The notes under the pieces were generated by a model. That model searched no databases and was not told where the DNA came from. It was given only the letters and a program-made list of their open reading frames with translations. From NCBI GenBank assembly GCA_030704615.1, contig CM060734.1, positions 23,684,001-23,748,000 on the forward strand: 64,000 nucleotides of DNA, read 5' to 3'. Shown in pieces: positions 4,002 to 57,045 of this stretch. Each line of letters begins with the position of its first letter. Position 1 is the first letter of the stretch. This DNA is from Takakia lepidozioides. Lineage: Eukaryota; Plantae; Bryophyta. The translations under genes and the position numbers were made by a program.

Positions 4002-4005
4002 CTCC

Positions 4006-6383: not shown

Positions 6384-6395
6384 GCTCTGATACCA
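6384..6395 (-). promoter_or_regulatory. Primer-binding site (tRNA-iMet)
   Basis: TGGTATCAGAGC on the minus strand. Confidence 0.9.
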
Positions 6396-20486: not shown

Positions 20487-20616
20487 ATAATGGATGACAG
20501 AAAGGTGAGGGCGATCTTGGACTAGGAGCCTCCGACTTCAGTCCCGGGAGTGCGATCCTTCCTAGGACTTGCCTCCTATTACCGAAAGTATGTGAGAAAT
20601 TTCGCCAAGATCGCAG
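20487..20616 (+). pseudogene. pol: Chromovirus RT-RNase H connection fragment, inverted relative to its RT
   Basis: IMDDRKVRAILD*EPPTSVPGVRSFLGLASYYRKYVRNFAKIA. Confidence 0.85.
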
Positions 20617-27740: not shown

Positions 27741-27829
27741 AAATGCTAGAAACGTATGGAGTAGGCCAAAAGTCTCAGGTTGCGAAAACTTAAATGTGCA
27801 ACCCACTGTATAGTCTACGTAATTTTTGG

Positions 27830-30800
27830 AAATACGAGGTTCATCCTTTGAACCATTTTTAAATGACCTCATACTTGTTCGGTACCTGTTTGACGGCATG
27901 TACAATATACTGGCAATGTTTCAAAACAATAAAAAATTGTTGAATGAAGATACCATTGGTTCACCCATTGCAATATTTTAAATCGAACTCATACTTGTCC
28001 GGTACCTTTAAGAGGGCATGTACAATGCAATGGCAAAGTTTGAAAGCATTCAGAAATCGGCACATCAAATAACCATTGGTTCCTCCTGTGAACCATTTTT
28101 TATTGATCTCATACTTCTCCGGTCCATGTAAGAGGCATGTAGAACATACTGGCAAAATTTCAAATCATTCAATTTTTTTTTTATCAATGAACATTTGATT
28201 TATCCTTTTCACCATTAACGATTAATCACAAATAAATGAACAGACACATAAATCATTTGCCTCCAAATGATTTTGGTTCACTTTGAGACTGGGCCAATAT
28301 CTTCAATGTACCATGGAAGAGGCCCCAGAGTAATATGAGATCAATCAAAATTCGTTCGATGGGCCAATGAGGCGTTCAGTTGTCATCTGGTTTTTGTTCA
28401 TTGCGAAAAAGAAATCCTGCAATGCGTGCACGGCTATTGCACCCATTGAACGGATGTGGTTGAAGCCCCTCTTTTGCCCGCATGTGCTTGAACATGTGTG
28501 CAACACATGTGTGGAGACACAACAGACGAATAAATCATTTGCCTCCCCATCGACACCAAGCCATTCCATAAAGTAATTGAATTTAAATTAATTTTAAGAC
28601 AATAAATAGGTTTGCACTGCCTTTCATTGGGGGTTTCTGGCACGTATCGATTTTGTTCTTGGCTCAATTTTGTTCTGCGGCTTCCAGCATCCTACCACTA
28701 CTCCCCCACCAAAATTTGGACCAATCAAAAATGCCCCCAAAAAACAAATGTTCTCTTCGCTCACTATTGCAGAACTCTCTATGAAGAGTGCATGAAGTTG
28801 AACACAAATCAAGTTTGGAGTACAAAATAGGGAAGAAACTGTGGTTTTGGGTCCAAATGAATTATGTTCGTTCCCAAATTTGGCACGCACGTTGCATATG
28901 GCTACATTACACACCCCATTCAAAAACAAAAAAAATAAAAAATTGTGAGCATGCGAAACACAGTCCAACAGGTCCCAAAGCAATATTAGATCCAGTGGAA
29001 TACATTCAACGGGTGAACGGATGGTTGCCCATCCAAATCATTTTTGTTTGCTTCCAAACTTTGCCAGTACGTTTGAGACACCATCTACAGGTCCCGGACT
29101 AATATCAAATCAATCAAAATTCATTCGATGGCTCAACGGATGGCTGGCCATCGAGATGATTTTGGTTTGCTTTGAGACTTGGCCAGTATGTTCAATGTGC
29201 CATGGAAGAGGCCTTAGAGTAATATGAGATCAATCAAAATTCGTTCAATGGGCCGACGGATGGTTGCCCATCCAAATGATTTTCGTTCGTTTTGAGACTT
29301 GGCGAGTGTGTTCAATGTACCCTCTTATAGGTCCCAGTGTAATATGAGATCAATCGTTAACGATTAATCATGAATCATCCAACAGGGAACTATTGGTTCA
29401 CCCTTTGAACCATTTAACATTGACATCATACTTGTCCAGTAACTTTAAGAGGGCATGTACAAGACACTCGCAAAGTTTCAAATGAATCCAAAATCATTTG
29501 GCAGGGGAATGATTGGTTCACCCATAGCCAATTTCAGGGGCTGAAATTGCCATTTATGGGGCTCGAATTGCCAATTTGAGGGGCTGGACTTGCAATTTGA
29601 TGGGCTAAAACTGCCAATCCAGGGGCTTCAATTGCCAATTTCAGGGGCTGCACTAGCAATTGCCATTTCATAAGCTACAGTTGCAATTTGAGGGGCGGAA
29701 ATTGTCATTTCAGGGGCTAGAAGTGCAATTTGAGGGGTTGGAATTGACAATTTCAAGGGCTCAAATTACAATTTGAGAGGCGGCCGGGGTTGGTCATTTT
29801 AGGGACTGGCAGTACCAATTTTAAGGGCTTGAATTGCATTTTGAATTGTAATTCAAGGGTTACAATGGGCCATTGGGGGGCTAGAATTACCAAAGCAATG
29901 ACATCCAAAGCAATATAAAATCATTTGATAGCGGAATGATTGGTTCACCCTTTCAAACCATTTTTTATTCACGTCATACTTGTCCAGTACTTGTAGGAGG
30001 GCATGTGGCTGACACTTGCAAAGCTTCAAAGCAATGTAAAATCATTTGATAGGGGAACAATTGGTTCACCCTTTCAACCATATTTTACTAACCTCATACT
30101 TGTCCGGTACCTTTAAAATGGCATGTGAAAGACACTTGCAAAGCTTTAAAGCACTCCAAAATCATTTGATATGTTCATGATTGATTCACCCTTTTAACCA
30201 TTTTAGATTGATTTGAAACTTGTGAAAGACCTATAAGAGGGCATGTATAAGACACTTGCAAAGTTTCAAATCAATTTAAAATCATTTGGTAGGGGGACGA
30301 TTGGTTCACCCTTTACACCATTTTAGATTGATGTCATACTTCTCAAAGACGTGTAAGAGGGCATGTAGAAGACACTTGCAAAGTTTCGGAGCAATAAAAT
30401 ATCATTTCATCGGGGAAGTTTCCGTTCACCCTTTCATCCAGTTTTGAATTGAACTGCATTTTTACTAAATAAAATGATTTAGAGGGCATAGGATTGTGGG
30501 GCGCAATGAGTGTGGGGCGCAATGATTTTGTTTTTGGCTTGATTTTGTTCTGTGAGTTGAACCCTCATACCACCACATCCTTGCCAAAAAATGTACCAAA
30601 GAAAAATGTTTGGAAAAAAACGTTCATCCTTTGCTCTATGCTCACTATTGCAGAACTCTCTATGAAGAGTGCATGAAGTTGAAGATAACTTCACCTTGGA
30701 GTGCAAATGAGGGAATAAAATGTGTTTTGGATGCAGACGATGTCTGTTCATGGTGACATTATGCATGCAATTCTTCATGTTGTTATCAAGCATATGACTT

Positions 30801-31165
30801 CAGAATGGAATTAAAAACAATTCATGTGCAGGCGAAAGGTTGTTTCTCCTTATGAATTTGAATAACCGATTCAAACAACTTTGTTGAAGTTCAACTTTGG
30901 TCCATATGTGCTTAAGTACGTACAAATCACGTACACAAAGTTGCAAGCGAAGAAATAATCATTTGCCTCCCGAACGACTCGTTAAACCTTTCAACCAATT
31001 TTCAATCATGAATCATTTAATAGGGGAACTATTGGTTTACCCTTAGAACCATTTTAGATTGACCTCATACTTGTCAGGTAACTTAAAGAGGGCATGTACA
31101 ACACACTCCCAAAGTTTCAAATCAATCTAAAATCATTTGGCAGGAGAACGATTGGTTCATCCATT
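27830..31165. repeat. About 120-bp satellite-like tandem repeat, in direct and inverted copies
   Basis: Unit TTGGTTCACCC...CTCATACTTGTCCGGTACCTTTAAGAGGGCATGT...AAATCATTTG, clearest at 29940-30440. Confidence 0.85.
29525..29890. repeat. About 21-22-bp minisatellite CCAATTTCAGGGGCTGAAATTG
   Basis: About 16 degenerate, partly self-complementary units embedded in the 120-bp array. Confidence 0.8.
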
Positions 31166-31332
31166 GACCCGGTGTACACTGTCACTCTTCAAGATTCGTG
31201 GGTGTGGTGCTTGATTATCCCATATGATGGACCCAGGTGCCATGGCCAAGTAACAAACCATTAAAATATTATGGTACGAGACAAACACAATTGAAAACAA
31301 CATTTATTCAAACATGATGTACAGTCAGAGGT

Positions 31333-32715
31333 CTACAAGTTTCTATCCATCCTCCAGCAATTTTTGGGCTCAGGCCAATTGAATAGCCCCGTCATGAAAC
31401 GCTTCACAACATTTTCTAGTTTGTACCGCAACTCTACTGTGTCTACACACAAGTCTTCCAGGGCGGAAGCAAAACAAATTCTAGTAGACATATCGTTGAA
31501 CAGACTTGCATCGAACGTGTTACCTCCATTTATTGCCTGGGCTATCTTTCCAATTGCAAAGGTCTCTGATGGCACGGTTAGAGGGGGCCTACGAGGTGTA
31601 CCATCTGACTGGTTGTTGGCTACATTATGAACAATTGCAATTTCAGGTGCAATCCACCATCTATGTACGAGAGTCTTTATCTTGTCTTTGCTTTCGAAAA
31701 TGTACAACGTGGTTTTTGGGTCATCCGTCGTGGAGGCCATCCCCCAATCGCATACCCCGATGTACACATCTTCAGACCCTTGTGGAAAATGCAACAAGAT
31801 GTTGTTGGGGGACATGTCGTTGTGCAAGAGGTGGTGATTATGGACGTTGAGCATGATGTGCAAAAACGCCCATGCCAATTGGGTGCGATTCTGTCGGAAT
31901 CGAACCAGTCGGTTGACCTCCTACATTTCCTGCTTCGTCCCCCGTCGTTCCATTAATTCCCTGTTATCCCGATCATTCCCCCATTTCCTGTTAATACTCA
32001 ACCATGATCGTATGGTCCCCCCATTCCACCAATGTGTGTAACATTTATTTCGACGTGGATGCAACGCAAAATACTTTATGATGCCGAAATGATGGAACTT
32101 TACAGCCAACGCCTCATTGTTATGTTGGACTTTGGCAAGTTCAGCATTTGTTTCCCTGGGCGTTTTCCCTGCTAGCTCCCAAGATGAAGGAATGAATTGA
32201 TCCCCAACAATTCTAACCCTCCGAATTGTACTATACCCTCCCTGTTTGGGCGAGTCGAGTTGTTGTACTTGTGCGTTTGTGGATATGTATCTCATGTTCA
32301 ATGCCGCATCCGCGGACGAGGACCCTGCCTTCCATGGGAGTGGTTTTGTCCGTCGTTTGGCATGGGCTTTTGCTATGTCAGACCACCAATCCACAAGCAC
32401 AAACAACTCCTCCTCCGAAGTTGGCATGCGACCTTCAGCTACAGGTGTTCTCATAACAAACTTGTCCATGGTTTGCCTCAGATTCCATGTGGCATCATGG
32501 GCCCGGTCCTCCATCCATTTCGTGAACTGGAACTTCGCCCTGTCCTCCTCCCATTCATCCCCGGCCAAAGCCTCCCTCATTCTCATCTCCATATTGTGCT
32601 GGAATCTAAGGAACCCCTCATTCCCATGTCGGACATACAAAAGATTCAAACACATTATGTCATTGTCCTTCAAATAATCCAGCACTACTTGCTTCACCAC
32701 CTTCGCGGCCTCCGG
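31333..32715 (-). pseudogene. Atypical protein-kinase-like gene; intronless, one in-frame stop, 5'-truncated
   Basis: GGYSTIRRV, LAGK, HNDMSPNNILL, CDWG and WIAPE. ORFs 31921-32769 and 31333-31878 are in the same frame. Confidence 0.82.
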
Positions 32716-32719
32716 AAAA

Positions 32720-32794
32720 TAGTTCTGCTCATGTTTTTTTCGACACTTACGACTCTGCTCATGGCTCATGGCTCATGAAATAGCAGCCCCCCCC
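32720..32794. mobile_element. Short transposon-terminus-like segment related to 3357-3394
   Basis: GCTCATGAAATAGCAGCCCC versus GCTCATGGAATAGCAACCCC, both preceded by CTCATG repeats. Confidence 0.55.
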
Positions 32795-33150: not shown

Positions 33151-36100
33151 TGTCTACCCCCCCTAAAGCCTGCGCCTGTCACCCCTAAGACTTCTGTTGG
33201 TCTCAGTCCACCATCCGTAAGTCTGCGCAGGGTACCCCACAGAACTCGTAAAAGCGTCTAAGTCTCAAACAACCCTCTAACAGCAACCTAAACATCCGGG
33301 TCTGAATCAGCTTCTTAACAAACAATAAAGGCTTATCATCATGGACATTGTCCATTACAAAAGCCGAGCAACCAAGGGCTTGTAACCAAGGATATTATCT
33401 GGCCAAAGAAGAGCCATCCTACAAGATTACATGGCACCAGATATCCTGAAGCAGCCTGCTCGTAAAAAGAGACCAGGCTTACAAGTGTTTACAATAAAGG
33501 ACACTGTCTGGTTTAAAAAAAAAAAAAAAAACCCAGATCTGCCCCACTTTGCTGCTTGGCACCAGACATCTTAAAGCCACCACCTTGTCACACAAATGCT
33601 CCACCGTCACAACAAGATGCCAAAGGGAACAAGAGAGAAGCACCCAAATGACTGAGTGTCCACCATACCAGGTTAAGAACAAGAGCCATCAAGATCAAGG
33701 GAAAGAGGAAGAAAGGTTTATTCTCCCCCAAAGATACAGATGTCATGGCATCGCTTCTTCAACTCGATTCCAATCATCTTCAAGCTTTGAAATTCATGTT
33801 AAGTGATGACCCTCACTTGGTCCCATCGGAAGCAATCAGAAACAGTTAAGTTAGTGAAGATGTGGAACCCTAGGTGAATCGCAGGTTTCACGCTTGTTAT
33901 CGCTGTACATACAACATGCATTACAAAGCAGGGGCAGAAAGGAAACAGAGCATATACAGGCCAATACCTCGATGGCTTGTGGAAGAGAGGCCTGCGCCAT
34001 AGCTCCCAAGACCAGTAAACAAGAATGCACAAAGCATGTACAAAGAAAGTGAATCGTCCAAACTTAAAGAGTTCAGTCACTTCCCTGAGGTCTTAAGATG
34101 CGCCGCTGTATCTTAATGATCAATGAAGGTCACAGCAGGCAAACACAGCATAGGTAGATTGCCCGCCAAACATGAGAGACAACCGCCACAGGGAAATTGC
34201 AGGTACTGCCGCCATTGCGCACCCCAAGATGGAAAGAAGGTACTGAATCTTGCCAGAAAACCTACAGGCCTTAATGGCGCAGCTCCATAGCATTCAAGGG
34301 CGCCAGCATCGAGCTCCATGCGCACACCGCCACCATCTCGCAGCTCCCGCCATGCCTTAAGCACGATCGCCGTGCAGAGGTTTAGGGCAGGGAGGAGATG
34401 AAACGCAATTTCCTGCGATTTCATCCACGCGGGATGAAATCCTCCACGCAGGATGAAATCCATTGCGCGGGATGAAATTCACTGCGATTTAATTATTGTC
34501 TAGTAACATATCACTGGCCTTAAACTGTCAAGTTTTAAAAGAACCAGCCAGATCCAAGGAAGGAGGGAGAGAGAGGGAGAGAGAGGGAACCCACCAACCA
34601 TCCCCTGGTATGGCAGCTCCTTATGGAGTGAGCGTGGTATGCACTCACCCCGTAAGGGAGTGCATACCAGACCCCATCACATAAATGACCTCCCTCTTCT
34701 TTGTAGCTTTTACTTCTGGTTGCAAAGGAACCATAGAAATAAACATGCCTACAATCTCAACTCTCCAAGGTCAAAAAACAAAACAAGCTGTGACAAGCAA
34801 AGGTACATCAACACTTCCATCAGAATGTAGAGTTTTACCTTTTAGCAATACATAAGATCTGGTAATGGAAAGATGAGGCCAATGAAAGGACCTTAACTCC
34901 GAAATTCATGAAGCAACAAACAGGAAAGAAACTTTTATCAACCCTTTAGTGTTGACCTAGCCCATGTTTTTGGGTACCACATGTGTACAAACCCAATGGG
35001 GGCAGGTTTAGGTAATGAATTTTCTGCCATTGGTACGTTCCAAGTTGGCAAGTTGTGACAAACGAAGGTACGTCAACACATACATCAAAATTTAGAGTTT
35101 TACCTTTTAGCTTATATATAAGCTTTGGTGACCGGAAGAAGAGGCCAGTGAAAGAACCCTCAATTCCCAAGGTCATAAAATAACAATCAGGAAAGAATCT
35201 TATATCAGACTTTTAGTGTTTACCCACCCCTTGTTTTGGGTACAACATGTGTACAAAACCAAAGGGGGCAGATATTGGGACTTAGGTAAGGAAGTCTGGC
35301 AGGGGTTTACCCCCTGGTATTCAGACAAAACATCTACTGGTCAGCAACATATCAGAATTGGGTATTTTTTATGGTGCTATAAAGAGCAAAGCCATAACCA
35401 GGAGAAACATAGAAACATTTGAGCCAAAGAAATGGAACTCATTCTTATCATAAGGTATCTAAATCTGACATAAGGCATCGGCTACAGGGGACCGGCAAAC
35501 AAGAGTAATGTGCATTGACCGGATCATGTATAAGGTGTACATGTCTACTCCAGCAAGTTGTCTTACCAAGGCCTAGCTCAAAATTTCAGCATTCAGAAGC
35601 CCTATAGATGTTCTATGCTTATCTCAGGTACCTTCAAGGATGCCTTACTCTCCATGCCCAATTAGCCAACATATTTTTGCTGGAGAAGATCTTACCTTAT
35701 GAAGGACTTGCTTGCTCCACACCATGGTCATGGCGGGAGAGGAGGCTGATATCTCATGGCTTTGGCCTTCCCATTGCATTGGGTTCATCACTTCAATCAG
35801 GAACATATTTGATAAACTTTTGTCATGCTCAGACCAAGGTGTCAGTAAATCAAACATAAAACTGAAAACAGAAGGGAGATTGGTTGATAATGTGTACAAG
35901 AACCACCAAGTACACTGGTCTAAATCAGAGAGGGAAGATACTTATGTCTTGTCGAGACATGGACAAAGACCTGACAAGGTCATTGTAAAATTAACGACAA
36001 ATCAGCCTCATAACAAGGCATTATCAACCTTCTTCATTCACAAGTCAGCTTTACGACAAATCCGAGACTTCAAAGTCAATGAAATCTCTGGGTCGGGGGG

Positions 36101-37050
36101 GGTGGGAACATATAGATATCCATTTACCACTGCACATAGCAAGAAAATCTTGTTTCAAGTTGCTAAACTGTGCCACATATGATTGAAAAGAGGGTCTAGA
36201 AGCCAGATTCCAGTTTTCCTTTGTTTATCATCATCACCACTTCAATGCTACAACCTATTTATATTGGCATCTTACACACCGTGTCTTAACCAGATCCACT
36301 ATACTTTTTTGGCCCATAACCTAGTTCAGGTTTGGGTTCTTTGTATAATGCCATATCAGGGTGATTGATCAGCAAGTGTCAATGTCCAAATAAGGAACCA
36401 TTGACCACTTTTCATAGCAAGAAATATCTGTTCAGCTTAGGAAAGCCATTCATGATCACATAGAACCAGTCTTACCTAAAATAAACATCAAGTCAGTTCC
36501 TGACACCATGCTTCTTGCCCTATGATCTGGTTCAGATCTGGGGCAGGTGTGTAAGCGCATTGGTGGTGCTCCCACATCATGTTATCAGCCCCAAGACCAG
36601 GTTCAAGGTCTGGGGCAATGATATCATTACCATAATAGGTTGTGATCAAATTTACAGGCCATCAACCCATTCATAGTGTCTGAATTGCTCATTCCAACAG
36701 GTCAGTAAGTTGCCATGGTATCATTTATCCTAAGGCAACCTGAACATCCGGGTCTGAATCAGCTTCTTAACAAACAACAAAGCTTACCATCATGGACATT
36801 GTCCATTACAAAAGCCGAGCAACCAAGGGCTTGTAACCAAGGATATTATCTGGCCAAAGAAGAGCCATCCTACAAGATTACATGGCACCAGATATCCTAA
36901 AGCAGCCTGCTCGTAAAAAGAAACCAGGCTTACAAGTGTTTACAATAAAGGACACTGTCTGGTAAAAAAAAAAAAAAAAAACCAGATCTGCCCCACTTTG
37001 CTGCTTGGCATCAGATATCTTAAAGCCACCAGCTTGTCACACAAATGCTC

Positions 37051-38001
37051 TGTAGGGCGAAAGCAGGTAATAGAAAACAATGGCAGGAGCAAAGCAAGAA
37101 GCAGTGAACGATGGCATGGTGCGGGACCTGGAAAGCGAAATTGACTAAAGTATAAAGATGATGCAGCGAGTATTTAGGGTAAAGGGATGGATGCAGGATG
37201 ATCAGAGTTTTTCATTCCAATGGTCAGTGATGGATGAAAATGGAGAACAGATGGAGAAACAAGAGAAATTCATACGATGGAGAAGAGGTCAAGATGTTGA
37301 AATACATTCATCTGTTTGTCAACGGACGGAAGTAAGGGATGAAAAGTGAAATCATGGATGAAAATTTGACAAAGGAATTTAATAGGCAGGTTGACTATTT
37401 GAATCCTAAAAATGGCGAATTAAGTTCTGATCGGCGCACCGTATGGGCAAAGGGATGGTCTGAGACCAAACTAAGATCGAGGAGATGATGATGAAATTAA
37501 TGTAGCCGAAATTTTATGTTTAGGTGGGGGGATAAGGCAAAGGGGGATAATACCCGGCCTTGTCGTGACATTCCACAATGAAGAATCTGATTTAAACTCT
37601 GTTTGTAGTATATTATGAGCCCATGTGGGCAGTCAGTGGTGTTGTGTGGTGAAGGAGAGTGAGCACGTATAAATGAGAGCTCTAGGAAGAAGATAGCACC
37701 AGTTTACATATGACACTTGGAGTGGATTGAGAAGGAAGGAAGGTGTAAGCATGTAGTGTGCCTTGTTGCTTTCATAACCACAAATGGAATGCCAGGATAT
37801 TGAAGTGCAGGAAACGAGACGACATATGAACTCCAAAGGGATGATATTTCCTACTGTGCTTGGGCAAAATCAACACTAGAATACAATAAGTTTCATGCAC
37901 AAATTTTACTGTCTATTCTTGGTTTTCTCTTCCGCTGCAGCCTAGGATAGACAGAGTACTAACGGGTGATCAAGATGATGTTTGGGTAGGTCCCCTCTTT
38001 T
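37051..38001 (+). repeat. 5' LTR of element 2 (no terminal CA)
   Basis: TGTAGGGCG...TCCCCTCTTTT followed directly by the PBS. Confidence 0.95.
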
Positions 38002-38013
38002 TGGTATCAGAGC
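38002..38013 (+). promoter_or_regulatory. Primer-binding site (tRNA-iMet)
   Basis: TGGTATCAGAGC. Confidence 0.93.
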
Positions 38014-38265
38014 AGGTCGTTCACGGACCAAGAAAGCAAACAGGCTGGCTTCTCATCAGCAAATTTCGAGTTCAACGAGATGGAACACAAGATGGTCAAG
38101 CTTGCAAGGGCGATGGTGTTGAAGGACTGCATCTACTATTCACATCAAAATGGAAAAAGGGCTGATGGCGAGCATAACAAATCGAGACAGGGGCTAGAAG
38201 ATTACGAGAATGATGGAAGGAAGGGTTCAATGAAATTGAATCACTGATTTAACAAGAACATCAGG

Positions 38266-39486
38266 ATGACAATCCTCCCTGGAGTTGCCGATGCACCATT
38301 TCACGGATGGGAGAGGGAAGATGTAAGAGATTGGATCGAAAGGCTACAGATGATTGGAGATATCAAGGACCTAAGCAAGGATAAATTGTTCAAGGTGGCT
38401 AGGCTGAACCTACATGGGACAGCGGAGAACTGGTACCTGAGACAAGAACCGAGACCTTCAAACTGGATCGATTTTCAAGCTGCAATCATTGGAAAGTTTG
38501 ATCGAATGGACTCCACCGAGCATGACCTGAAATTACAGAAGTCACATGAAGGAAGAAGGTTACTGGAACATTTGGAAACTACCTTATGGGAGGAGAAAGA
38601 CAGTCAAAACATCTTCAACTCTGACTGTTATATTGACACATCAGACATCAAGGTCCATGAGAAGTACATCGCAAGAAGAGCTGAGATACCTGCAAACACG
38701 ACATTGCTACTTGAAACCAGACACAATCACTGCCAAGAAGAACACATGGCTGCCGTCTGTCCCACAACAAGAACCATTTCTGAGTGTGAGAAAGATCACC
38801 AGGAAGGGCACGAGATAGAAAAGTGTGGTATTATGTGTCCCTCTTGCAAGATGCATGGACATTTTGAGTTGGAATGCGAAATCAAACAGGAGCAACAGGG
38901 TGAATCAGTGACCTCTGCGAACTCTTATGGGGTAGATGATGAAGAAACAATAATAGCTGAGTTTGAAGAGTGGATTGCACAACATTCTACTAGAGAAGAG
39001 AAGGAAGATGATACTGTACAGGTCAAGGCGGAGACGATGAGAGATGGGAAGTGGTCACATGCTCCACTTGTTGCAATAAAAAAAAGGGATGATTCAGCTG
39101 CACCACCTGCAACCCCAACAACACCAGCAGCAAAGGAGATCATATCATCGCTGTTGCTTAGCAAAAGACAAGGGGTGATAGCGGAAGGAGTGCAAGTAAA
39201 GAAAACAGAAGAAGATCACTTGGAAGGGATTTACAATGAAGAACAACAGAAGACGCAGGCTGAAGGGGGAGTTGTGCAGCCACCTACTACTGGCACCAAA
39301 AGAAAATGGGTGAGGTACAACTGGCACCCTGGCGCTGAGCAAGTCAGGTGTGAACTGCCAAGAGTGAATGTACTTGAGTTTTTCTTTAAAGGTAGTGACA
39401 GCAAAAGGGATAGACTGCCACATTGCATTTCAGAACCAAAACAGCATAGGACCAGTTGTCATCACAAACAGAAGAGTCAAGTTTGA
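38266..39486 (+). pseudogene. gag: Degenerate Gag homologous to that of element 1
   Basis: PFHGWEREDVRDWIERLQM...KVARLNL, with eroded knuckles including CPSCKMHGHFELEC. Confidence 0.85.
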
Positions 39487-41461
39487 GCCACTGCCTGGGA
39501 TCAACACAGTTGGGCAATCTGCCAGTTTCAGTTACAGCATTGGGGATGGACTGTTTCCTAGTACTTCATTCCAGCGACGACAACATAGTGTGTGGTCTCT
39601 TGAGCAGATGAGAGAAGAGGCAAGGACATTGGAGAGACTGAGTGATGAGAGCACAAAGGAAAAGAAAGAGGGGAGTGAAACTGTGAGTGAGGACTTAGCT
39701 GATGTGTTGTTGAAAGAAGAAGAGATGAACCAGCATCACCAGCAGTTGGCAACCATGGAGAACGGGCCTGCACAGGCATCAAAACAAAGGGAGAATTTTA
39801 CTGAGAAAGGTGTGACACCATCAAACTTGAAGCCAGCATTAGAGAAAATCCAGTGCAGTCTGAATCTGCCACAGAGAGAGAAAATTAGAATGAGTAAAAT
39901 GTCATATGGATTACCTGAGGAAGAAGGCATTAGTGAGCAGAGATTTCACCAAAGGAGCTGTTTTGAGAGTTTAATCTGTGAGGAAAAACCAGCATGTCAG
40001 CTTGAGATGAGAGACAGAGAGCAATTCAAAGTGAATTTTTTTGAACAGCAAAAATGTGAAGAAAAGGGCAGGTCAAGTCAGTTACTCATAGAACAAGAGA
40101 AAGGCCAGCTGAGAGGTGATCATGGAAAGAAAGACCTTGAGAGCTCGATCTGTAGAAGAAGGACACCGGATCACTATGAAAAAAGGGAAAGAGAGAATAA
40201 TCTGATTGGACAGCAAAAGTGTGAGAGATCATGCAAAACTAGTGACATACCTGCAGGCCGAGAGAAAAGAGAGCTAGGTAATAAACATGATGGGGTAAGC
40301 CTTGAAAATTTGACCTGTGGGAAACGAGAAAATCACAGTGAGAAAAGAGAGGAGAGTTTGGCAAAACCGCAAGACGAGACCATAAAAAACAATGACTGCA
40401 AAAAGGGAGGAAGCTTCAGCAAGGGAAAACAAGGAAGGATGAGAAGCTGGAAGGCAAGGGCACTCATCTTCAGGAAACACTTCAGGAAGGCAGTGAAAGA
40501 TCTGGCGAGGACGAAGCAACATGGATGTCTCGGTCAGTTTTTGCAAGATCATCAACGGGAGAACTTGACTATGTGTTCGCTTGGATATCTGGAAGGAGAA
40601 CAGCTGGACCAGAACTGGTGACAGCAGGTCAGAATAACACCTGTGCAAAGAAAGCAGAGCTGGAGGACAAAATTTGGGAGTTGGGAGCAAAACAACATGG
40701 TCCCAACAAATGGAAACCTACTGGAGGAGAAAGGGCACAAGCTGAACAAGAAAAGAAGAAAGAAGGATTACCTCTTTGCGGGCTGATAAGGAGCAGTAAC
40801 AGAGTGCAAGACCTGCACACCAACAAGGGAAATCAGCATGAAGGAAAAGGAAAACAAGACAAACAGACGTGGAGTAAAGCTGGAAAATAGGGAAGGTCAA
40901 CGTCAACGAAAGCCGACTGATGAAAAAGGAGAACAGATCAGAAGGGAGTCCTTATCCTTTTTTGGACTGATACGGAGCATTACAGGCATCATTAACCTAC
41001 ACACCAACAAAGGATATCAGAAGAGAGACAGATGGGAAAACAAAGAACCAAGTCAGCCAAATGGGGAAGCAAGGATGGAGCAAGAAGACAAAATTTGGGA
41101 GTTGAAAACTGAACAGCAAAGTCTTGACAAAGGGAGACCTACTGATGGATTACGAGAGGCACAAGCTGAAGGAAAAAGAGAAGAACGAGACTTATCTTTG
41201 ACTGGCGGACAGATAAGGAGCGATACTGAAAATTATGATCTGCACACAAAGGGATTGCAGCAGAAAACAGAGGTAGATTTGGGGTCAAAAAGGGACCAGT
41301 CAGGAAGGGATGAAGCAATAGCAAGGGAGGTTCAGTCTTCCTGTCAGAAGTCACATCACAATGAAGAACAAACAGATCCTGAACTAGTGTCTTACAATGG
41401 TACAAATGAAGAAGCAAAAAGGATCAGATTTGGGAGTCTTCAGCAGGCCCGCATCAAATAA
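39368..41461 (+). other. E/K/Q-rich, internally duplicated sense-strand ORFs occupying the position of PR-RT-RH
   Basis: ORFs of 417, 121 and 207 aa. The blocks EDKIWEL and GLIRS..LHTNKG are repeated. No DTG or YxDD motif. Confidence 0.5.
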
Positions 41462-41523
41462 CTAAATGGAGACCTGCATACGGAGATCAAAACACACCAA
41501 AGGGGTTCAAGTGGGTTGTCACC

Positions 41524-43251
41524 ATGGCAGGAGAGGATGGAGATGGTCAGAAGGACTCGCGTGATGAGAGGGAGATAGCCAGGATAAGAAGAAATGAAGA
41601 ACTGAAAGACCAGGCCGGTACTGAAGACCGACATCCACCACCAAGAAAGAAGGCACCTGCTGATACTGTCACCAATAAATTGTGCATATTTTGCAGGAGA
41701 CAACCAGCATGTGGAAGAAAGAGAAGCATACCAGTAGCCCGGAGCTCACTTGACTTCATTCCAACCATAAACATGGTCTTTACCAGGAGCCAAGGGGCTG
41801 GAACCCAGGAAGGGAAGGAAGCAGAAGTCGATGACACCTCTGAAACTGAGTCAAATGAACTGAACTCGAAGGAAACACCATCAGCAAACATAAACCTGTC
41901 ACCCGCCTCCTATGATGAAGAAACTACAAATGCCTTGAGTCATGAAGGGACCAGCAATGAAGAAAAGCATGAGCAGTTGCGTATTGAGCCTCTGGCGATT
42001 CAAATCAGCAGAAAGAAGGGGCTGATCACAAAACACATGCAGCTGGAGTTGTTAATGGCAGCTGAAGGTGAACAGAAGGAGGAAGAGGGCTGGAACAGCC
42101 TCAGTGATGAAGAACAAGAGGAGGAGACAATTTCTGATATTCTGGATGACATACAGGTCATGCACATGCTTACATTTGGTGAAGTAAATGAATATTTGGA
42201 TTCCAAAGAAGCAAAAAGAGTGAGGAAGAGGGCCAAATCATACAAACTGATGGAAGGGAGACTTGTGTTTCAAGGTAAGTTGGTACCAGAGAAGAAGGAG
42301 CGAGAAGCCATAGTCCAACAAATTCATGAAGAAATGGGACATTTTGGAGTTCGCCGAATCCATCACGAGGTCTGCAAGCGTTTCTTTTGGCACAACAGAA
42401 CCAAAACGTCAGTAAAGGTATTGAAATCATGCCTCAAGTGTCAGTTGGCCAAGACAACTACACCTCTGCGATCTGGAGCAAAGCAGATGAGAAGTATTCC
42501 TGTAAGAGACATTTTCTACAGAATAGCTTTGGATACTGCCGGTCCATTACCTCTGTCCACAACTGGAAATAAATACGCCCTAATCGCTGTGGACCACTTC
42601 TCTAAGTGGGTAGAAGTTTGCCCTGTCAACAAACACACTTCATTGCTCACCGCAAGGTTCTTGGAGGAGGAAGTGATTTACCGCTATGGAGTGCCAAACA
42701 CTGTACTTACAGATCATGGAGCAGAATGGACGAAGGATTTTGCTCTGGTCTGTCAACGCTTTGGGATTAAACATGAGCATTCCGCACCTTATTGGCCCCA
42801 GTGCAACGGGATGGTGGAGCGGTTAATACGATCAATGAAAGAATGCATGGTCACCATGGGAAAGGAAGGAAACAAAGAATGGGACAGGGACATATACAAG
42901 GCAGCATTCGGATACAGAATAGGGATTCAAGCCTCCACGAACTTGTCACCTTTCAAAGTACTTACTGGCAGGGAAACGCGATTGGGAATAGACAATGAAT
43001 TACCTGGCATTACTGAGCTAGTTGAACTAAGTGATGACATTGGAGCTATGCAGAACATGATCGCAGAGAAGGTGCGAATCATCCGCGAGCTAGAGGCAAA
43101 ACTGAGAGCCAACGTACAAGTTGCACAAAGGGCACAAAGGAAGGCTTATGCTCAACGTAAATCAAGAGGGAAGTCGTTACCTGAGCTGGCCGAGGGGACA
43201 CTTGTGATGATGATCAAACCTGGTAAGAAGAGAAATCTGGAATCCTCATGA
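41524..43251 (+). CDS. Retroviral-type DDE integrase with N-terminal extension
   Basis: HHCC (HEEMGH...CLKC), IALDTAGP, LTDHG and NGMVER. The stop at 43249 falls in a GPY/F-like motif. Confidence 0.93.
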   Translation: MAGEDGDGQKDSRDEREIARIRRNEELKDQAGTEDRHPPPRKKAPADTVTNKLCIFCRRQPACGRKRSIPVARSSLDFIPTINMVFTRSQGAGTQEGKEAEVDDTSETESNELNSKETPSANINLSPASYDEETTNALSHEGTSNEEKHEQLRIEPLAIQISRKKGLITKHMQLELLMAAEGEQKEEEGWNSLSDEEQEEETISDILDDIQVMHMLTFGEVNEYLDSKEAKRVRKRAKSYKLMEGRLVFQGKLVPEKKEREAIVQQIHEEMGHFGVRRIHHEVCKRFFWHNRTKTSVKVLKSCLKCQLAKTTTPLRSGAKQMRSIPVRDIFYRIALDTAGPLPLSTTGNKYALIAVDHFSKWVEVCPVNKHTSLLTARFLEEEVIYRYGVPNTVLTDHGAEWTKDFALVCQRFGIKHEHSAPYWPQCNGMVERLIRSMKECMVTMGKEGNKEWDRDIYKAAFGYRIGIQASTNLSPFKVLTGRETRLGIDNELPGITELVELSDDIGAMQNMIAEKVRIIRELEAKLRANVQVAQRAQRKAYAQRKSRGKSLPELAEGTLVMMIKPGKKRNLESS

Positions 43252-43449
43252 GAAGACCCTTACACTTTTGTGGGGTATGTCGACAAGCATCACGATGAAG
43301 CGATGGGAGAAGGAGAGCGAATCTGCAGGCTGGTGGATGGAGCAGGAAAAAGTTGGAACAGATCACGAAGAGACCTCAAATCAATTCATGTCAAGTAGCT
43401 GACGCGTTTGGCCGGGGACCTGCCAATCCAATTTGGGAGTACTTACAGC

Positions 43450-44294
43450 TGTAGGGCGAAAGCAGGTAATAGAAAACAATGGCAGGAGCAAAGCAAGAAG
43501 CAGTGAACGATGGCATGGAGCGGGACCTGGAAAGCGAAATTGACTAAGTATAAAGATGATGCAGCGAGAATTTAGGGTAAAGGGATGGATGCAGGATGAT
43601 CAGTGTTTTTCATTCCAATGGTCAGTGATGGATGAAAATGGAGAACAGATGGAGAAACAAGAGAAATTCATACGATGGAGAAGAGGTCAAGATGTTGAAA
43701 TACATTCATCTGTTTGTCAACGGATGGAAGTAGGGGATGAAAAGTGAAATCATGGATGAAAATTTGACAAAGGAATTTAATTGGCAGGTTGACTATTTGA
43801 ATCCTAAAAATGGCGAATTAAGTTCTGATCGGCGCACCGTATGGGTAAAGGGATGGTCTGAGACCAAACTAAGATGAGGAGATGATGATGAATTAATGTA
43901 GCCGCAATTTTATGTTTAGGTGGGGATAAGGCAAAGGGGGATAATACCCGGCCTTGTCGTGACATTCCACGATGAAGAATCTGATTTAAATTCTCTGTTT
44001 GTAATATATTATGAGCCCATGTGGGCAGTCAGTGGTGTTGGTGTGCCTTGTTGCTTTCATAACCACAAATAGAATGCCAGGATATTGAAGTGCAGGAAAC
44101 GAGACGACATATGAACTCCAAAGGGATGATATTTCCTACTGTGCTTGGGCAAAATCAACACTAGAATACAATAAGTTTCATGCACAAATTTTACTGTCTA
44201 TTCTTGGTTTTCTCTTCCGCTGCAGCCTAGGGTAGACAGAGTACTAACGGGTGATCAAGATGATGTTTGGGTAGGTCCCCTCTTTTTACTTACA
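43450..44294 (+). repeat. 3' LTR of element 2 (about 110-bp internal deletion; extra ACTTACA end)
   Basis: Direct repeat of 37051-38001, ending TCTTTTTACTTACA. Confidence 0.95.
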
Positions 44295-46302
44295 GCTCCA
44301 CCGTCACGACAAGATGCCACAGGGAACAAGAGAGAAGCACCCAAATGACTAAGTGTCCACCATACCAGGTTAAGAACAAGAGCCATCAAGATCAAGGGAA
44401 AGAGGAAGAAAGGTTTATTCTCCCCCAAAGATACAGATGTCATGGCATCGCTTCTTCAGCTCGATTCCAATCACCTTCAAGCTTTGAAATTCATATTAAG
44501 TGAGCACCCTCACCTGGTCCCATCACATGCAATCAGAAACAGTTAAGTTAGAGAAGATGTGGAACCCCAGGTAAATTGTAGGTCTCACGCTTGTTATCGT
44601 TGTACATACAACATGCATTACAAAGCAGGGGCAGAAAGGAAACAGAGCATATACAGGCCAATACCTCGATGGCTTGTGGAAGAGAGGCCTGCGCCATAGC
44701 TCCCAAGACCAGTAAACAAGAATGCACAAAGCATGTACAAAAAAGTGAATCGTCCAAACTTAAAGAGTTCAGTCACTTTCCTGAGGTCTAAAGATGCGCC
44801 GCTGTATCTTAATGATCAATGAAGGTCACAGCAGGCAAACACAGCATAGGTAGACTGCCCGCCAAACATGAGAGACAACCGCCACAGGGAAATTGCAGGT
44901 ACTGCCGCCATTGCGCACCCCAAGATGGAAAGAAGGTACTGAATCTTGCCAGAAAACCTATAGGCCTTAATGGCGCAGCTCCATAGCATTCAAGGGCGCC
45001 AGCATCGAGCTCCATGCACACACCGCCACCATCTCGCAGCTCCCGCCATGCCTTAAGCACGATCGTCGTGCAGAGGTTTAGGGCAGGGAGGAGATGAAGT
45101 GCAATTTCCTGCGATTTCATCCACGCGGGATGAAATCCTCCACGTAGGATGAAATCCATTGCGCGGGATGAAATTCACCGCGATTTAATTATTGGCTAGT
45201 AACATATCACTGGCCTTAAACTGTAAAGTTTTAAAAGAACCAGCCAGATCCAAGGAGGGATGGAGAGAGAGGGAGAGAGAGGGAACCCACCAACCATCCC
45301 CTGGTATGGCAGCTCCTTATGGAGTGAGCGTGGTATGCACTCACCCCGTAAGGGAGTGCATACCAGACCCCATCACATAAATGACCTCCCTCTTCTTTGT
45401 AGCTTTTACTTCTGGTTGCAAAGGAACCATAGAAATAAACATGCCTACAATCTCAACTCTCCAAGGTCAAAAAACAAAACAAGCTGTGACAAGCAAAGGT
45501 ACATCAACACTTCCATCAGAATGTAGAGTTTTACCTTTTAGCTACACATAAGCTCTGGTAATGGAAAGATGAGGCCAATGAAAGGACCTTAACTCCGAAA
45601 TTCATGAAGCAACAAACAGGAAAGAAACTTTTATCAACCCTTTAGTGTTGACCTAGCCCATGTTTTTGGGTACCACATGTGTACAAAACCAATGGGGGCA
45701 GGTTTAGGTAATGAATTTTCTGCCATGGGTACGTTCCAAGTTGGCAAGTTGTGACAAACGAAGGTACGTCAACACATACATCAAAATTTAGAGTTTTACC
45801 TTTTAGCTTATATATAAGCTTTGGTGACCGGAAGAAGAGGTCAGTGAAAGAACCCTCAATTCCCAAGGTCATAAAGTAACAATCAGGAAATAATCTTATA
45901 TCAGACTTTTAGTGTTTACCCACCCCTTGTTTTGGGTACAACATGTGTACAAAACCAAAAGGGGTAGGTATTGGGACTTAGGTAATGAAGTCTGGCAGGG
46001 GTTTACCCCCTGGTATTCAGACAAAACATCTACTGGTCAGCAACATATCAGAATTGGGTATTTTTTATGGTGCTATAAAGAGCAAAGCCATAACCAGGAG
46101 AAACATAGAAACATTTGAGCCAAAGAAATGGAACTCATTCTTATCATAAGGTATCTAAATCTGACATAAGGCATCGGCTACAGGGGACCGGCAACAAGAG
46201 TAATGTGCATTGATCGGATCATGTATAAGGTGTATACGTCTACTCCAGCAAGTTGTCTTACCAAGGCCTATGTCTTCTTAAATGTACCGGACAAGTATGA
46301 GT

Positions 46303-48009: not shown

Positions 48010-49030
48010 TCCCACTCCAACCTTGTGTTAACGCAATGTCGTTTCGTGGGCTTGCAAAGATAGACAACAAAGATAGACAGTGGGAATGGAGGCAAAGAGA
48101 GATATTGGCAGGACTCCCAAAACAACCTTGCGTCAACGCAAGGTTGTTTTGGGAGCTTCAAACGTTCAAAAAAAGTAGAACAAATCGACACTGGAATCTA
48201 GCCCAAATGAACCTTGCGTTGACGCAGGGTTGTTTGTTGGGCTTGCAACGGTGGGAATAGAGGCAAAGAGAGACAGCGACATGACTCCCAAACTACCTTG
48301 CGTCAACGCAAGGTTGTTTTGTGAGCTTCATACAATCAAAAAGTAAATCAAAACGACACTGGACTGTAGCCCAAATCAACCTTGCGTTGACACAAGGTTG
48401 TTTATGGGGCTTGCAACAGTGGGAATGGAGGCAAAGAGAGACAGCGACAGGACTCCCAAACTGACGCATGGTTGTTTTGTGAGCTTCATACGTTCAAAAA
48501 AGTAGATCAAAACGACACTGGACTGTAGCCCAAATTAACCTTGCGTTGACGCGAGGTTGTTTGTGGGGCTTGCAACGGTGGGAATGGAGGCAAAGAGAGA
48601 CATTGACAGGACTCCCAAACTACCTTGCGTCAACGCAAGGTTGTTTTGTGAGCTTCAAACGTTCAAAAAAAATAGAACAACGACACTCAAGTTGGGCCAA
48701 AATCAACCTTGCGTTGACGCAAGGTTCATTCTTGGGCATGCAAGTGTGGGAACGGCAACAAAAACAGGCATTGACATGACTTGCAAACAACCTTGCGTCA
48801 ACGCAAGGTTGTTTTTCGGGCTTCAATACTTGGTGACAATCATTCAAAGGGCACTCCATTCAAAAGGCACTCCATTTTGTGTGTCTGTATCTGTCATCTG
48901 AATCAACCTTGCGTTGACGCAAGGTTGATTGAGGGGTTGCACAAGACAACCATCTTATTGTCCATCATTCATGACTCGGGCATTCCCGCTAGCAGCAAAT
49001 CGACCTTGCGTTGACGCAAGGTTGATTGGG
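48010..49030. repeat. Array of AACCTTGCGT(C/T)(A/G)ACGCAAGGTT palindromes, spaced about 80-90 bp
   Basis: About 12 copies in alternating orientation, giving a higher-order unit of about 170 bp. Confidence 0.92.
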
Positions 49031-50854: not shown

Positions 50855-52597
50855 TGGTGGTCCATCGTCTCGAGAGCGTCGGCGTGATGTTGAAGGTCGT
50901 GAGAGTCAGAAAGGCTGATCTGGTAGTTGGGTAAGCGACAACTCGAATGTATCTGGTTCCTGTGACTCCATACTGCCAATACAAGATGCAAAAGTGCTGG
51001 AAGTGCTGGAAGTGTAGCTATATACTGATGTGTGGTGCTCCTCCCTCCTTAGCGTGTATCAGGTACATTGAATGTGGAGTTTTCACCTTGAAGCTAACTT
51101 GGCTGACATCATCGTTATAACGTCTTATTGACGTGTAGCTCGAGGCTTAGCTGGATATCGTTGATGAAACTCTTGGATTTTGTCAGATGCATTGGCGAGG
51201 TTGGATGAAGGTTCTCATGTTCGTTCGCTGATGTCGTAGTCTTTCCAATGTACGAAATAATCAAGACGTTTATACTTGATGCGAGAGTCTAGGACTCGTC
51301 GACTTCATACTCAATTTCCTGATTGACTTCGACTGGTGGAGGTGGTACGGAGACTCTCCCTGGAATATTTGATGGATGATACAACTCCAATAATGAAACA
51401 TGAAAGACTGGATGGATGCGCATACTTCGTGGGAGTTCAAGCCTAAAACTCACCGGATTTATTTGTCGAATAATTTTGAATGGTCCCAGGCGTTGATAAT
51501 ACAACTTCTTTGATGGTCGCGAGGTTTGTATGTCTTGTCGAAGAAGCCATACACGATCTCCGACCTTGAACTGGGGTTGGAGTTGGCGACGTTGATCTGC
51601 ATACTCCTTATTTTTGAGCTTCTGCGAGGTGGAATGTAAGCTCCTTGTGAATTGTAGCAAAATGAATAGCAAGCTTTTCTATAGCAGGGCTTCCAACAGT
51701 CTTCATGTGGAAAGGGTTTGCTCAAGGATGATGACCATAATTGGAGAAAAATGGAGTTTGTTTGGTCGAAGAATGTATAGTGTTGTTGTAGGCAAACTCA
51801 GCCAATGACAGAAGGTCTGTCCAATTATCTTGGTGATAATTTATCGTACAGCGAAGATACTGCTCCAAAATCTAGTTTACGCGTTCGGTTTGACCATCAG
51901 TCTGTGGATGTTTAGCTGTAGAGAGGTTGATCTTAGTATCCAATATGTGAAATAATCCCCTCCATAAATTTGATATGAACTGTGGTCATCGATCATATAC
52001 GATGTGCTTCGGGAGTCCATGAATGCGGTAGATATTATTGAGGAAGAGTCTTGCAGTTTCCTCGCCGGTAACCGTCTTATTACATGGAATGAAATGTGTC
52101 ATCTTCGTAAAACGATCTACAATAACAATGATTGAATCGGTGGTCTTGGAAATTGGAAGGTCCGTAATAAAGTCCATAGACACGGACGACCATGGACCCT
52201 TGGGAATGGGTAATGGTTGAAGAAGGCCGTAAGGTCGATGTCGTGGTCCCTTCGCTCTAGCACATATGTCGCAAGATTTTATAAATTCTTTCACGAGTTT
52301 CCACATTTGCGGCCACCAATAGTCCCTGGATATCAATTCCATTGTTTTGTTGAAGCCGAAATGTCCTCAAGGTTGCACACGTCAGTGACGTCACATCACG
52401 TCGGACCTGACGCTGACGCGACCAACGTCACGTCAGTTTTGCCGGAAAATCAGTAAAACATGAATTAGATGAAAAATATGCCACGTAGGTGGACACGTTG
52501 TATTCCAAACGACACATTGGCAAGTGAATGAATTGTTTTATAAATTACTCCATCCGCCAATAGTTGAGGTCATTTTTAAATCATTATTGTTAAATTG

Positions 52598-53340
52598 GTG
52601 CGACCTCCAAATGGTGGTGGTCGCAGAATTTATCTTATTTTTTAATAGTTGCGACCACCAGCAAAGGGGTTGTCGCAGCATTTTTTATTTTTTTAAAATA
52701 GATGCGACCACCAGCGGGGGTGGTCGCATTTTTTTCGTTTCTTAAACAGTTGTGACCACCGCTACTGGTGGTCGCACAATTTTTATTTTATTTGTAATAG
52801 ATGCGACCACCATCAGGGGGGTGGTAGCAACATTTTTCTATTTTTTAATATCTACGACCACCAGCATGGGGGTGGTCGCAGCATTTTTCTGTTTTTTTAA
52901 TAGGTGCGACCACCAGCAGGGGGGTGGTCGCAATTTTTTTTATTATTTTATTTTATTTTTATTTTTAAATATTCTTTGTGACCACGAGCATGGGGATGGT
53001 CGCAACATTTTTTTTAATAGGTGCGACCACCAGCATGGGGGTGGTCGCAGAATTTTTTTATTTGTTTAATAGGTGCGACCACCAGCAGGGGGGTGGTCGC
53101 AGAAATTTTTTGTTTTTTTAATAGGTGCGACCACCAGCACGGGGGTGGTCACAACAATTTATTTATTTTTATTTATTTATTTTATTTTTAAATAATCTCT
53201 GTGACCACGAACATGGGGGTGGTCGCAGCATTTTTTTTTTTTTTTAATAGGTGCGACCACCAGCATGAGGGTGGTCGCAACAGTTTTTTTTTTTAAAAAA
53301 ACATGCGACTTCCTCGTGCGACCTGGAGCGGTCGCAGCAT
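52598..53340. repeat. Subterminal TGCGACCACC-N-GGTGGTCGCA palindrome array
   Basis: About 14 copies with T-rich spacers. Confidence 0.93.
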
Positions 53341-55487: not shown

Positions 55488-56709
55488 GAGTAGTTGCCTA
55501 CCTTGCAAGTCTTGGCGACTACCGCTTTCACCAAGCGGCTGATGGAATCTTCAGACAGCTCCGTGGTCGCCCGAATCATGTTTAATTGACGAGGCTTCAC
55601 GCACTTCTTAGCCATGTGCCCGGGCTCCCCGCAATTAAAGCACTCCATCGAAGGTCGCCTTCTGTCCGCCACAAGCCGTCGCATCTGATTTTCTTTTCGG
55701 AGCACCGGGTGCCGCCTTGACATGTGAAGGCCCTCCCTTTGATTTCCATGTGCCATTGTTGCCGCATGGCCTATCCCACTTCTTTTCCGGTCGGAAGGAG
55801 TCACCCTCCCACCAAGTTTTCTTGTGGTTCAGCTCCGTACGGCCTTGTCTTTCGCCCCTAGGGACATCCGAGAAACATTCAGCCCTTTCAATTGCCTCGT
55901 TCAAAGTCTTAGGTGGCTTCTCCTCCAACTTCCGCCTGGCCCATGGGGCCAGTCCCGCCACAAAATTGAAGACCATTTCTGGTTCCGAAATATCCGCAAC
56001 TTTGAGCAACAGCACATTGAAAGCCTGAACATATCCCCGAATGTCATCCGTTTGCTTCAAATTCTTCATCTTGTCTCGGACGAGCCAAGACGCATTGAGG
56101 GGAACAAACTGTCTTTTCATAAGTTTCTTGAACCCACTCCAGTTCAAGGTTTCCGGGTTTGGACCTTGGTCATGAAGGCGTTTCTGCCACCATTGTTGAG
56201 CATAGCCCCTCAAATAGGTGGGAGCCAATTCCACCCGATCCTCGTCACTCAACTTGGCCGCCCGGAAGTACTGCTCTAGCTCCAAGAGCCAGGTGTTGAG
56301 TGCCTTCCAATTTTCGGATGCCCTCAAAGGTGCCGGGTTCCTTAGGCTTCACCTTAAATTTTGCCTTTGTGGAAGTGGCATTAGCCGCCCTCAACACGTC
56401 TTTCAACGTCCCGCCAAACTGCGCCAACAACCCTTTCCAAAAGGCTGCTGGCATGGGAGGCATCTGTTGGTCTGCCGAAACCTCCGGGAAGTCCTCAGGC
56501 TCCGACTCCCCAGATTCCTCCCGTTCTTGAGCGGCCTCGCTTTCAAAAGCATGAATCGCCTCCTCAAATTGTCGCCTCGGTGACACGTCGCCTCCACCGG
56601 GCTGACCAGGATCATCATCTTTCGGGCCGTTCCGCTTTCGCTTTGGCTTGCCCGACCCTATGATGAGGCCGATCTCAAGGATGATCGCGTACTGAACTCT
56701 AAGCTCTGA
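55488..56709 (-). pseudogene. gag: Chromovirus (Galadriel-like) PBS remnant, gag and start of protease; frameshifted
   Basis: WLLELEQYF, YLRGYAQQWW, LKQTDDIRGYVQAF and CFNCGEPGHMAKKC. TCAGAGC PBS remnant at 56703-56709. Confidence 0.9.
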
Positions 56710-57045
56710 CCTCTTCACCGTCTGAACAACTCTCTCTGCCAAGCCGTTAGCCTCAGGATGATCCCGAGAAGTGGTGTGGTGGTCTATCAAGGCTTTATCA
56801 CACAAAGCCTAAAACTCCCCGAAGAACTCTCTCCCTTGGTCCGTGAGTACCTCAGCTGGAGCACCGAATCAGCTAAGCACACGATCCAAGAATGCATACA
56901 CAACCCCCTCACTAGCCTTATCAGGCAATGGAACCAACTCAATCCACTTGGAGAAGTGCTCCACCATCACCAACATATATCTGTGGTCAAGACTCCCGTA
57001 GCCTAATCCCATGATCGGAAGAGGATGCAACTGATGTCGCACACC
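56710..57045 (-). pseudogene. Non-chromoviral Gypsy integrase core fragment
   Basis: GAPAEVLTDQGREF and HHTTSRDHPEANGLAERVVQTVK. Confidence 0.85.

Follow-up and report, generated by a model that had tools for sequence, protein, structure and literature searches.

The window analysed here, a stretch of 64,000 nucleotides (nt) of the bryophyte Takakia lepidozioides (assembly GCA_030704615.1, contig CM060734.1, positions 23,684,001 to 23,748,000), contains on its forward strand a Ty3/gypsy retroelement whose two long terminal repeats (LTRs) do not end at the same place. The left target-site duplication (TSD) GCTC (37047-37050) is followed by a 5′ LTR of 951 nt (37051-38001), which begins with TGTAGG, ends with CCCCTCTTTT and lacks a terminal CA. 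Its last bases touch the primer binding site (PBS) TGGTATCAGAGC (38002-38013), presumably of the initiator-Met tRNA type. Near the other end, a short purine run, GGGAG (43435-43439), represents a remnant of the polypurine tract, which is longer at the same place in relatives. It precedes a displaced attachment (att) half-site, (T)ACTTACA, with a 2-nt spacer GC (43440-43449), which reads CA-GC-TG together with the LTR start and is likely to be the true start of the LTR in the complementary DNA (cDNA). The body of the 3′ LTR (837 nt, 43450-44286) runs into a tail, TACTTACA (44287-44294), that is absent from the 5′ LTR and constitutes the right integration end; the right TSD GCTC follows at 44295-44298. 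The resulting layout is permuted (A1-internal-B1-A2-B2), and the 2-nt spacer is lost at the outer ends of insertions.

Several of these features had been claimed in a sequence-only reading of this DNA, and the comparisons made here bear them out: the 5′ LTR abuts the PBS without a CA, the additional ACTTACA of the 3′ LTR lies within the tail, and the TACTTACA 8-mer has a second copy upstream of that LTR (43440-43447), between GGGAG and GC-TGTAGG. The probability of finding this 8-mer at a given position by chance is approximately 2 × 10−5. The 4-bp TSD was likewise confirmed: the host repeat is present in tandem, and its other unit (copy A) holds the empty target site with a single GCTC (33598-33601, +). 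The empty form, in which 37046 is joined to 44295, was present in contigs from 4/4 runs compared. The two LTRs are identical at 823 of 835 aligned bases (98.6%), and the body of the 3′ LTR lacks one block of approximately 111 nt that the 5′ LTR contains. A contig from another study covers 37858-38075, including the LTR/PBS joint, with 0 differences. A contig spanning 42382-43478 aligned without a gap and with 9 differences, the places of which are partly known, at a depth similar to that of the internal region. None of the contig matches listed over the element had a loose end at 37051 or 44294.

A Gag-like open reading frame (ORF) at 38248-39486 (+) has no Pfam match and shows 40% identity over 86 amino acids to the Gag N-terminus of a relative. 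Charged, partly repetitive ORFs belonging to no Pfam family (39368-41461, +) are located where protease, reverse transcriptase (RT) and RNase H would be expected. The region 41410-43398 (+) encodes a DDE integrase with H2C2 and rve domains and a D-34-E spacing; a stop codon at 43249-43251 interrupts its C-terminal part. The integrase domains (rve, Integrase_H2C2) were the only Pfam domains detected in the element, and tblastn with the polyprotein of a relative recovered only the Gag N-terminus and the integrase. Since neither search found protease, RT or RNase H, the element is regarded as non-autonomous. The predicted integrase fold matched the foamy virus and Ty3 integrases best, and this model of moderate quality (predicted local distance difference test score, pLDDT, 65) revealed nothing beyond the expected fold. 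The distance from the second D to the E amounts to 34 residues in 22/22 near integrase homologues matching the pattern and to 35 residues in 32/35 distant homologues. The D-34-E spacing (ORF 41410-43251; homologues P0046-P0078, P0001 and P0002) marks the lineage together with two distant PHD-bearing relatives. Searches for more distant PHD-bearing D-34-E relatives, and for the RT in viral contigs, gave no matches.

The window harbours a second element of the same lineage, which belongs to a different family and lies on the reverse strand. Its 5′ LTR of 2.6 kb (6396-8998) starts with TGTAGT and ends with CCCCTTCTTT, which adjoins the same PBS TGGTATCAGAGC, again without a CA. The adjacent region (3399-6395) comprises the PBS (6395-6384), a gag-protease ORF (5976-4006) and the start of the RT; it is truncated and has no 3′ LTR in the window. 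Contigs aligned over the LTR of this element showed the empty target, and none of its 3′ LTR ends occurred among the matches listed. Both elements follow ATGCTC inside high-copy host repeats (37043-37050, +; 9004-8999, −). With two insertions here and varied TSDs among the metagenome relatives described below, a target preference, if there is any, would be specific to host or family.

For a broader comparison, we used the best 80 of at least 558 confirmed metagenome loci, which were found with an alignment of 28 integrases, and 2 loci from viral contigs. Five of these 82 loci have no integrase C-terminus and 3 end too early, leaving 74 usable relatives. Their integrases are 40-46% identical, and the three loci inspected for genes (L079, L075 and L039) are gag-protease-RT-RNase H-integrase elements. 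The Met-type PBS and the run labels make a plant host likely for these relatives. A purine tract, GG(T/C)(T/G/C)ACA, 2 nt and TG follow each other in 72/74 relatives, so that a junction of the ACTTACA-GC type, looked for upstream of their 3′ LTRs on the suggestion of the sequence-only reading, is present as 7-mer-NN-TG in nearly all of them; in the remaining 2/74 the 7-mer is wholly missing. The spacer is 2 nt long in 72/72 cases (TA in 71, GA in 1), compared with GC in the window, and both TA and GC preserve the palindrome of CA-NN-TG. After removal of one spurious pattern match, 28 LTR/PBS sites were available, 25 of them distinct. In all 28 a pyrimidine and a T run lead straight onto the PBS, and neither a tail nor a CA precedes it at any site (0/28), which agrees with what had been anticipated for other copies.

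The tail itself is visible in 34/47 loci with at least 620 nt beyond the junction; among the other 13, 4 run into the PBS, 7 lie near a contig end and 2 are unresolved. Eleven relatives are complete. They have unique flanks and LTRs that are 70-86% alike where aligned. Their TSDs of 4 bp lie beyond the tail; the two TSD copies match exactly in 7 elements and differ by one transition in 4. The 7-mer or the spacer precedes the 5′ LTR in 0/11, and the TSD sequences vary among relatives. No solo LTRs were found in the metagenome loci. Eight matches to a tandem-junction pattern were rejected as ordinary junctions on the reverse strand (2), TSDs ending in TG (3) or unrelated sequences (3). In viral contigs 26 matches were obtained, 0 of them near a retroelement protein, and these were taken as chance; GTDB contained only 2 distant matches at 28%. 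Two further loci (L083, L084) are Gypsy polyproteins on short contigs binned to a bacterial metagenome-assembled genome, likely eukaryotic contamination. The integrase of L010 clusters with those of L016 and L079 and its LTR resembles that of L041, suggesting LTR swapping between families.

A private deletion, rearrangement or assembly error in the window copy might be invoked in view of the approximately 111-nt deletion in its 3′ LTR. Four metagenome loci (L024, L049, L062 and L067) have an LTR between the purine-tract junction and the PBS, and no tail; this is probably due to assembly collapse, with a shared-LTR tandem or a 1-LTR circle as other options. A private deletion is nevertheless unlikely because the second family and contigs from another study show the same layout. 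With 72 relatives of this layout and matching TSDs in 11 complete copies in addition, an artefact is refuted, and we give this explanation practically no weight. The displaced right end is a feature of the whole lineage and not private to the window copy.

Where the cDNA ends on the right is determined, in canonical reverse transcription, by the base adjoining the PBS. The tail is absent beside the PBS and therefore another template is needed. After removal of L021, which duplicates L020, 33 distinct insertions were compared, and in 32 of them the tail and the purine-tract-side 7-mer agree at the two variable positions (20 TT, 11 TG, 1 CT). On a tree of integrase DNA the tail label changes 5-6 times, with at least 4-5 changes forced by well-supported branches, although some of these may be due to LTR swapping between families. 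In the window family, the tail and the purine-tract-side copy have both changed to ACTTACA. A canonical linear pathway with an odd primer or boundary would have to derive the tail from the primer, from an inverted LTR start or from the first 8 nt of the PBS, which in most relatives resemble it (TGGTATCA and TGGTTACA, equal in length and both ending in CA); in locus L072 PBS and tail even have one change in common. A self-primed inverted copy of the LTR start is rejected because the tail differs from the mirrored start in 13/33 insertions, with the mismatch at position 4, while following the purine-tract side in 32/33. Nor does the tail derive from the PBS, since both copies in the window family read ACTTACA; window tail and PBS 8-mer agree only at the first T and the last CA. 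The canonical route is thus largely refuted and very improbable.

The length of the tail provides information on how the joint is formed. Among 17 distinct insertions in which the end of the unique 5′ region (U5) is available from both LTRs, 10 have a tail of 8 nt, 6 a tail of 9 nt and 1 a tail of 10 nt, and none is shorter. In this set L069 was counted as 8 rather than 7 owing to an upstream 1-nt deletion, L068 and L058 were removed and L053 was a duplicate. Longer tails outnumber shorter ones by 7:0 (sign test, p = 0.016). The extra base is T in 5 cases and C in 1; in loci without a 5′ LTR it is apparently A (L020, L060) or G (L025). The joint of L040 differs from those of its near relatives L003 and L075, which have the same PBS side. 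Retroviruses retain the terminal A of the tRNA, and in the simplest reading the tail region consists of U5, one T from this retained A, 0-1 untemplated base and the 7 nt with which the plus strand starts. The copied unit is then likely to be 7 nt plus one T from the primer, which refines the 8-mer. As the tail tracks the purine-tract-side copy and the joint often contains extra bases, the right end is likely to be made anew in each cycle by joining of the cDNA ends.

We propose that tRNA-primed minus-strand synthesis and plus-strand priming approximately 9 nt upstream of the TG would generate a linear cDNA with 7-mer-NN-TG at its start and, at its end, CTCTTTT followed by one T contributed by the last A of the tRNA. 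Plus-strand priming, notably in the window copy with its weak purine tract, may be positioned with the help of a short GGA-looped stem (43408-43426, +) located upstream of this tract. Both hosts have such a stem at this place, and its stem sequence differs between them (in the relatives L003, L027, L039 and L079 just after the integrase stop); it beats shuffled sequences in 3/4 relatives, and its z-score in the window is not significant. The cDNA ends would be joined, probably as a 2-LTR circle and sometimes with an extra untemplated base, by a host end-joining ligase, the RT or the integrase as candidate enzymes. Joining would place the pyrimidine run of U5 beside the 7-mer, thereby completing on the right an att site that is the mirror image of the left att site. 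The integrase would then cut after CA on both strands of CA-NN-TG, leaving 2-nt 5′ overhangs arranged as on retroviral ends after processing, and the 4-bp TSD would result from ordinary strand transfer. The purine-tract-side copy, without a subterminal signal, would be skipped.

Because a 2-LTR circle contains two CA-NN-TG sites, the choice between them requires such a subterminal signal. The joined right end matches the left end at 6.6/13 subterminal positions compared with 3.2/13 for the purine-tract-side copy; it is the better match in 31/34 cases and the worse in 1/34, in loci that are related and with a contribution of base composition. Read inward, the left and the joined right ends are purine-rich subterminally, whereas the purine-tract-side copy is pyrimidine-rich. 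This resemblance of the two ends would explain why the joined site alone is cut, and before joining no complete att site would be present on the right. A single symmetric cut accounts for the constant spacer length, and for a TA-to-GC change under which the palindrome persists, better than trimming each linear end on its own would.

Considering all routes together, an end-to-end junction is very probably made anew, leaving canonical routes and artefact jointly with only a slight chance. We favour, with modest confidence, a non-autonomous Ty3/gypsy copy whose cDNA was joined end to end, probably into a 2-LTR circle, and then cut at CA-NN-TG with a 2-nt stagger. Integration through a cut 2-LTR circle, as suggested by the sequence-only reading, is supported by the lack of a CA before the PBS (0/28), the junctions in 72/74 relatives and a tail that tracks the purine-tract side; the circle itself we infer. 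Retroviral integrases are able to cut palindromic LTR-LTR junctions, according to the available text of PMC1180852 and PMC4372172. We lean only slightly towards the wider view that the whole lineage integrates exclusively via the 2-LTR circle, with a right att site divided between U5 and the beginning of U3 and complete only once the cDNA is closed, circularisation as an obligatory checkpoint and a D-34-E integrase specialised for the CA-NN-TG junction.

Several observations weigh against integration through a circle. A 2-LTR circle offers two CA-NN-TG sites and a 1-LTR circle one, yet 0/74 loci end at the purine-tract-side 7-mer, and the proposed subterminal account of this choice in part reflects that related sequences are rich in purines. 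Neither a circle nor an intact tandem junction was detected in 84 loci or among the contig matches listed over the window element. The tail of L036 differs from the purine-tract-side copy at one position. In L072, the PBS (1836) and the tail (8879-8894) carry the same G-to-C change (TCG), for which copying from the purine-tract side does not account; it may stem from gene conversion, be coincidental or point to some feature of the joining step. Most extra bases are T and adjoin a T run, so that they could have arisen by slippage. Host end-joining often loses bases, and 0 joints have lost U5 bases; selection for usable ends could hide such joints. Finally, linear DNA is the established precursor in retroviruses, as stated in the consulted parts of PMC11054761 and PMC3148978.

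The same provirus is predicted by a linear route in which the RT, once the minus strand is copied to its end, adds an untemplated base, switches to the beginning of an LTR template and extends the plus strand through the 7-mer. The integrase then trims long overhangs at both ends of a linear cDNA, so that the junction arises in each cycle without any circle. Terminal addition by the RT fits single, varied extra bases and the absence of deletions, and a template jump accounts directly for the 0/74 products cut at the purine-tract-side site; in most relatives, GGT common to the PBS start and the 7-mer could aid the jump. On the other hand, the CA and the TG would lie on different cDNA ends, and the jump does not explain why the spacer is always 2 nt long or why both its variants keep the palindrome. 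Moreover, the window family has at most 1 base in common at the joint, and the additional base of 9-nt tails falls within the would-be jump overlap. We consider this route, the main rival, possible but rather unlikely.

Alternatively, the integrase might make the junction, either by attack of the U5 3′-OH 9 nt upstream of the left TG (figure-eight-like) or by head-to-tail joining of cDNAs between molecules, and subsequently cut it, which again predicts the same provirus. Integrases normally require a CA on the end that attacks, and U5 does not end in one; extra bases matching neither side would need a prior polymerase step, and no multimer junction was seen in the 84 loci. DDE transposases do make such junctions, with slightly variable length, in the portion of PMC7780238 consulted; for the present lineage we regard this route as improbable.

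Comparison with the cut of a joined 2-LTR circle in other systems shows partial parallels. With non-chromoviral Ty3/gypsy elements (Metaviridae), the lineage shares the Gag-protease-RT-RNase H-integrase order in the autonomous relatives L075, L039 and L079, an RT closest to Ty3 among solved structures, the DDE integrase with H2C2, the PBS, the purine tract (weak in the window copy), outer TG...CA and a short TSD. It differs in that its two LTRs are not co-terminal, 0/28 sites have a CA before the PBS, the 3′ LTR has a tail of 8-10 nt, the att half-site is displaced, and the spacing is D-34-E instead of D-35-E. A search of 46 ORFs from three elements (the one in the window, L075 and L039) detected no chromodomain, which separates them from chromoviruses. 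Phygy and Selgy are of the same non-chromovirus type with a compact internal region and a 4-bp TSD; in the available part of PMC6317226, a tRNA-Trp PBS dominates in Phygy, which targets NCGN, and a tRNA-Ala PBS in Selgy. The Met-type PBS of our lineage matches neither, and its varied TSDs do not show the NCGN preference. Judged by PBS type and target preference, the lineage is probably neither of these two; homologue searches returned unnamed metagenome proteins.

As far as the accessible text of PMC1180852 and PMC4372172 goes, cleavage of foamy virus and HIV-1 2-LTR circles involves the same cut of a palindromic LTR-LTR junction to processed ends. However, the circle is a side route there, with both att sites present on linear DNA and a provirus without trace, whereas our lineage would have one att site only after joining, and the cut inside U3 would permute the provirus. 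The circle-junction model of 1984 was displaced by linear-DNA data, according to the parts of PMC11054761 and PMC3148978 consulted. It later returned as a side route for foamy virus and HIV-1, and the pathway proposed for our lineage would resemble it. PAT, TOC1, Ngaro and Viper have the same A1-internal-B1-A2-B2 split direct repeats, of which B is only 7-8 nt in our lineage. These elements encode a tyrosine recombinase, as described in the portion of PMC4157794 at hand, in contrast to the DDE integrase, tRNA PBS and TSD found here; no Pfam match to a tyrosine recombinase was obtained in 46 ORFs of at least 90 amino acids on both strands of the window element, L075 and L039. The copy-out/paste-in elements IS3/IS911, IS30 and IS256, as covered by the available sections of PMC7780238, integrate a circle with a DDE enzyme that cuts abutted ends with loss of a short spacer, which our lineage would parallel. 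They are DNA transposons without reverse transcription, their transposase makes the junction from donor DNA, and the insert is unpermuted. Troyka was considered and set aside as unrelated, with CG...CG ends, a 3-bp TSD and animal hosts in the part of PMC12440569 seen. Our literature search found no description of the layout; Repbase entries and subscription papers, which were outside this search, could hold one.

Elsewhere in the window, an integrase fragment of the P0001-like type (HHTTSRDHPEANGLAER; 56760-57024, −) adjoins a Ty3 capsid ORF at 55635-56348, and pieces of another Gypsy RT lie at 20493-22455. The sequence TGGTATCAGG occurs at 23494 (−), preceded by an inverted TACCA. A RING-finger ORF (26154-27740, +) and kinase-like ORFs (31333-32772, −) flank 120-nt tandem repeats (27815-31181) and are possibly cargo of a large transposon. 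Unrelated minisatellite-like arrays with units of approximately 84, 52, 63 and 10 nt were observed at 48012-48848, 24098-24752, 52572-53313, 2651-3024 and 12121-12594, and some of them contain internal inverted repeats.

The role of 2-LTR circles as integration precursors has been debated since 1984, and linear DNA is now accepted, as set out in the consulted text of PMC11054761. In retroviruses both routes leave the same provirus and hence genomes cannot tell them apart. In this lineage the provirus is permuted, so that every insertion records the route and the joint retains variation from copy to copy. The structure is seen across many families and is hard to square with the textbook pathway, even if we infer the circle itself. 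In most relatives the tail (TGGTTACA) has a look-alike in the opening 8 nt of the PBS (TGGTATCA). LTR finders that demand TG...CA would therefore probably include the PBS in the 5′ LTR and classify the element as canonical, an annotation blind spot. The lineage offers a natural multi-family system for a direct test of the circle-precursor question. If the proposed pathway is true, its integrase accepts a circular donor with a junction of approximately 40 bp, and circles of such lineages in mobilome data would be intermediates rather than by-products.

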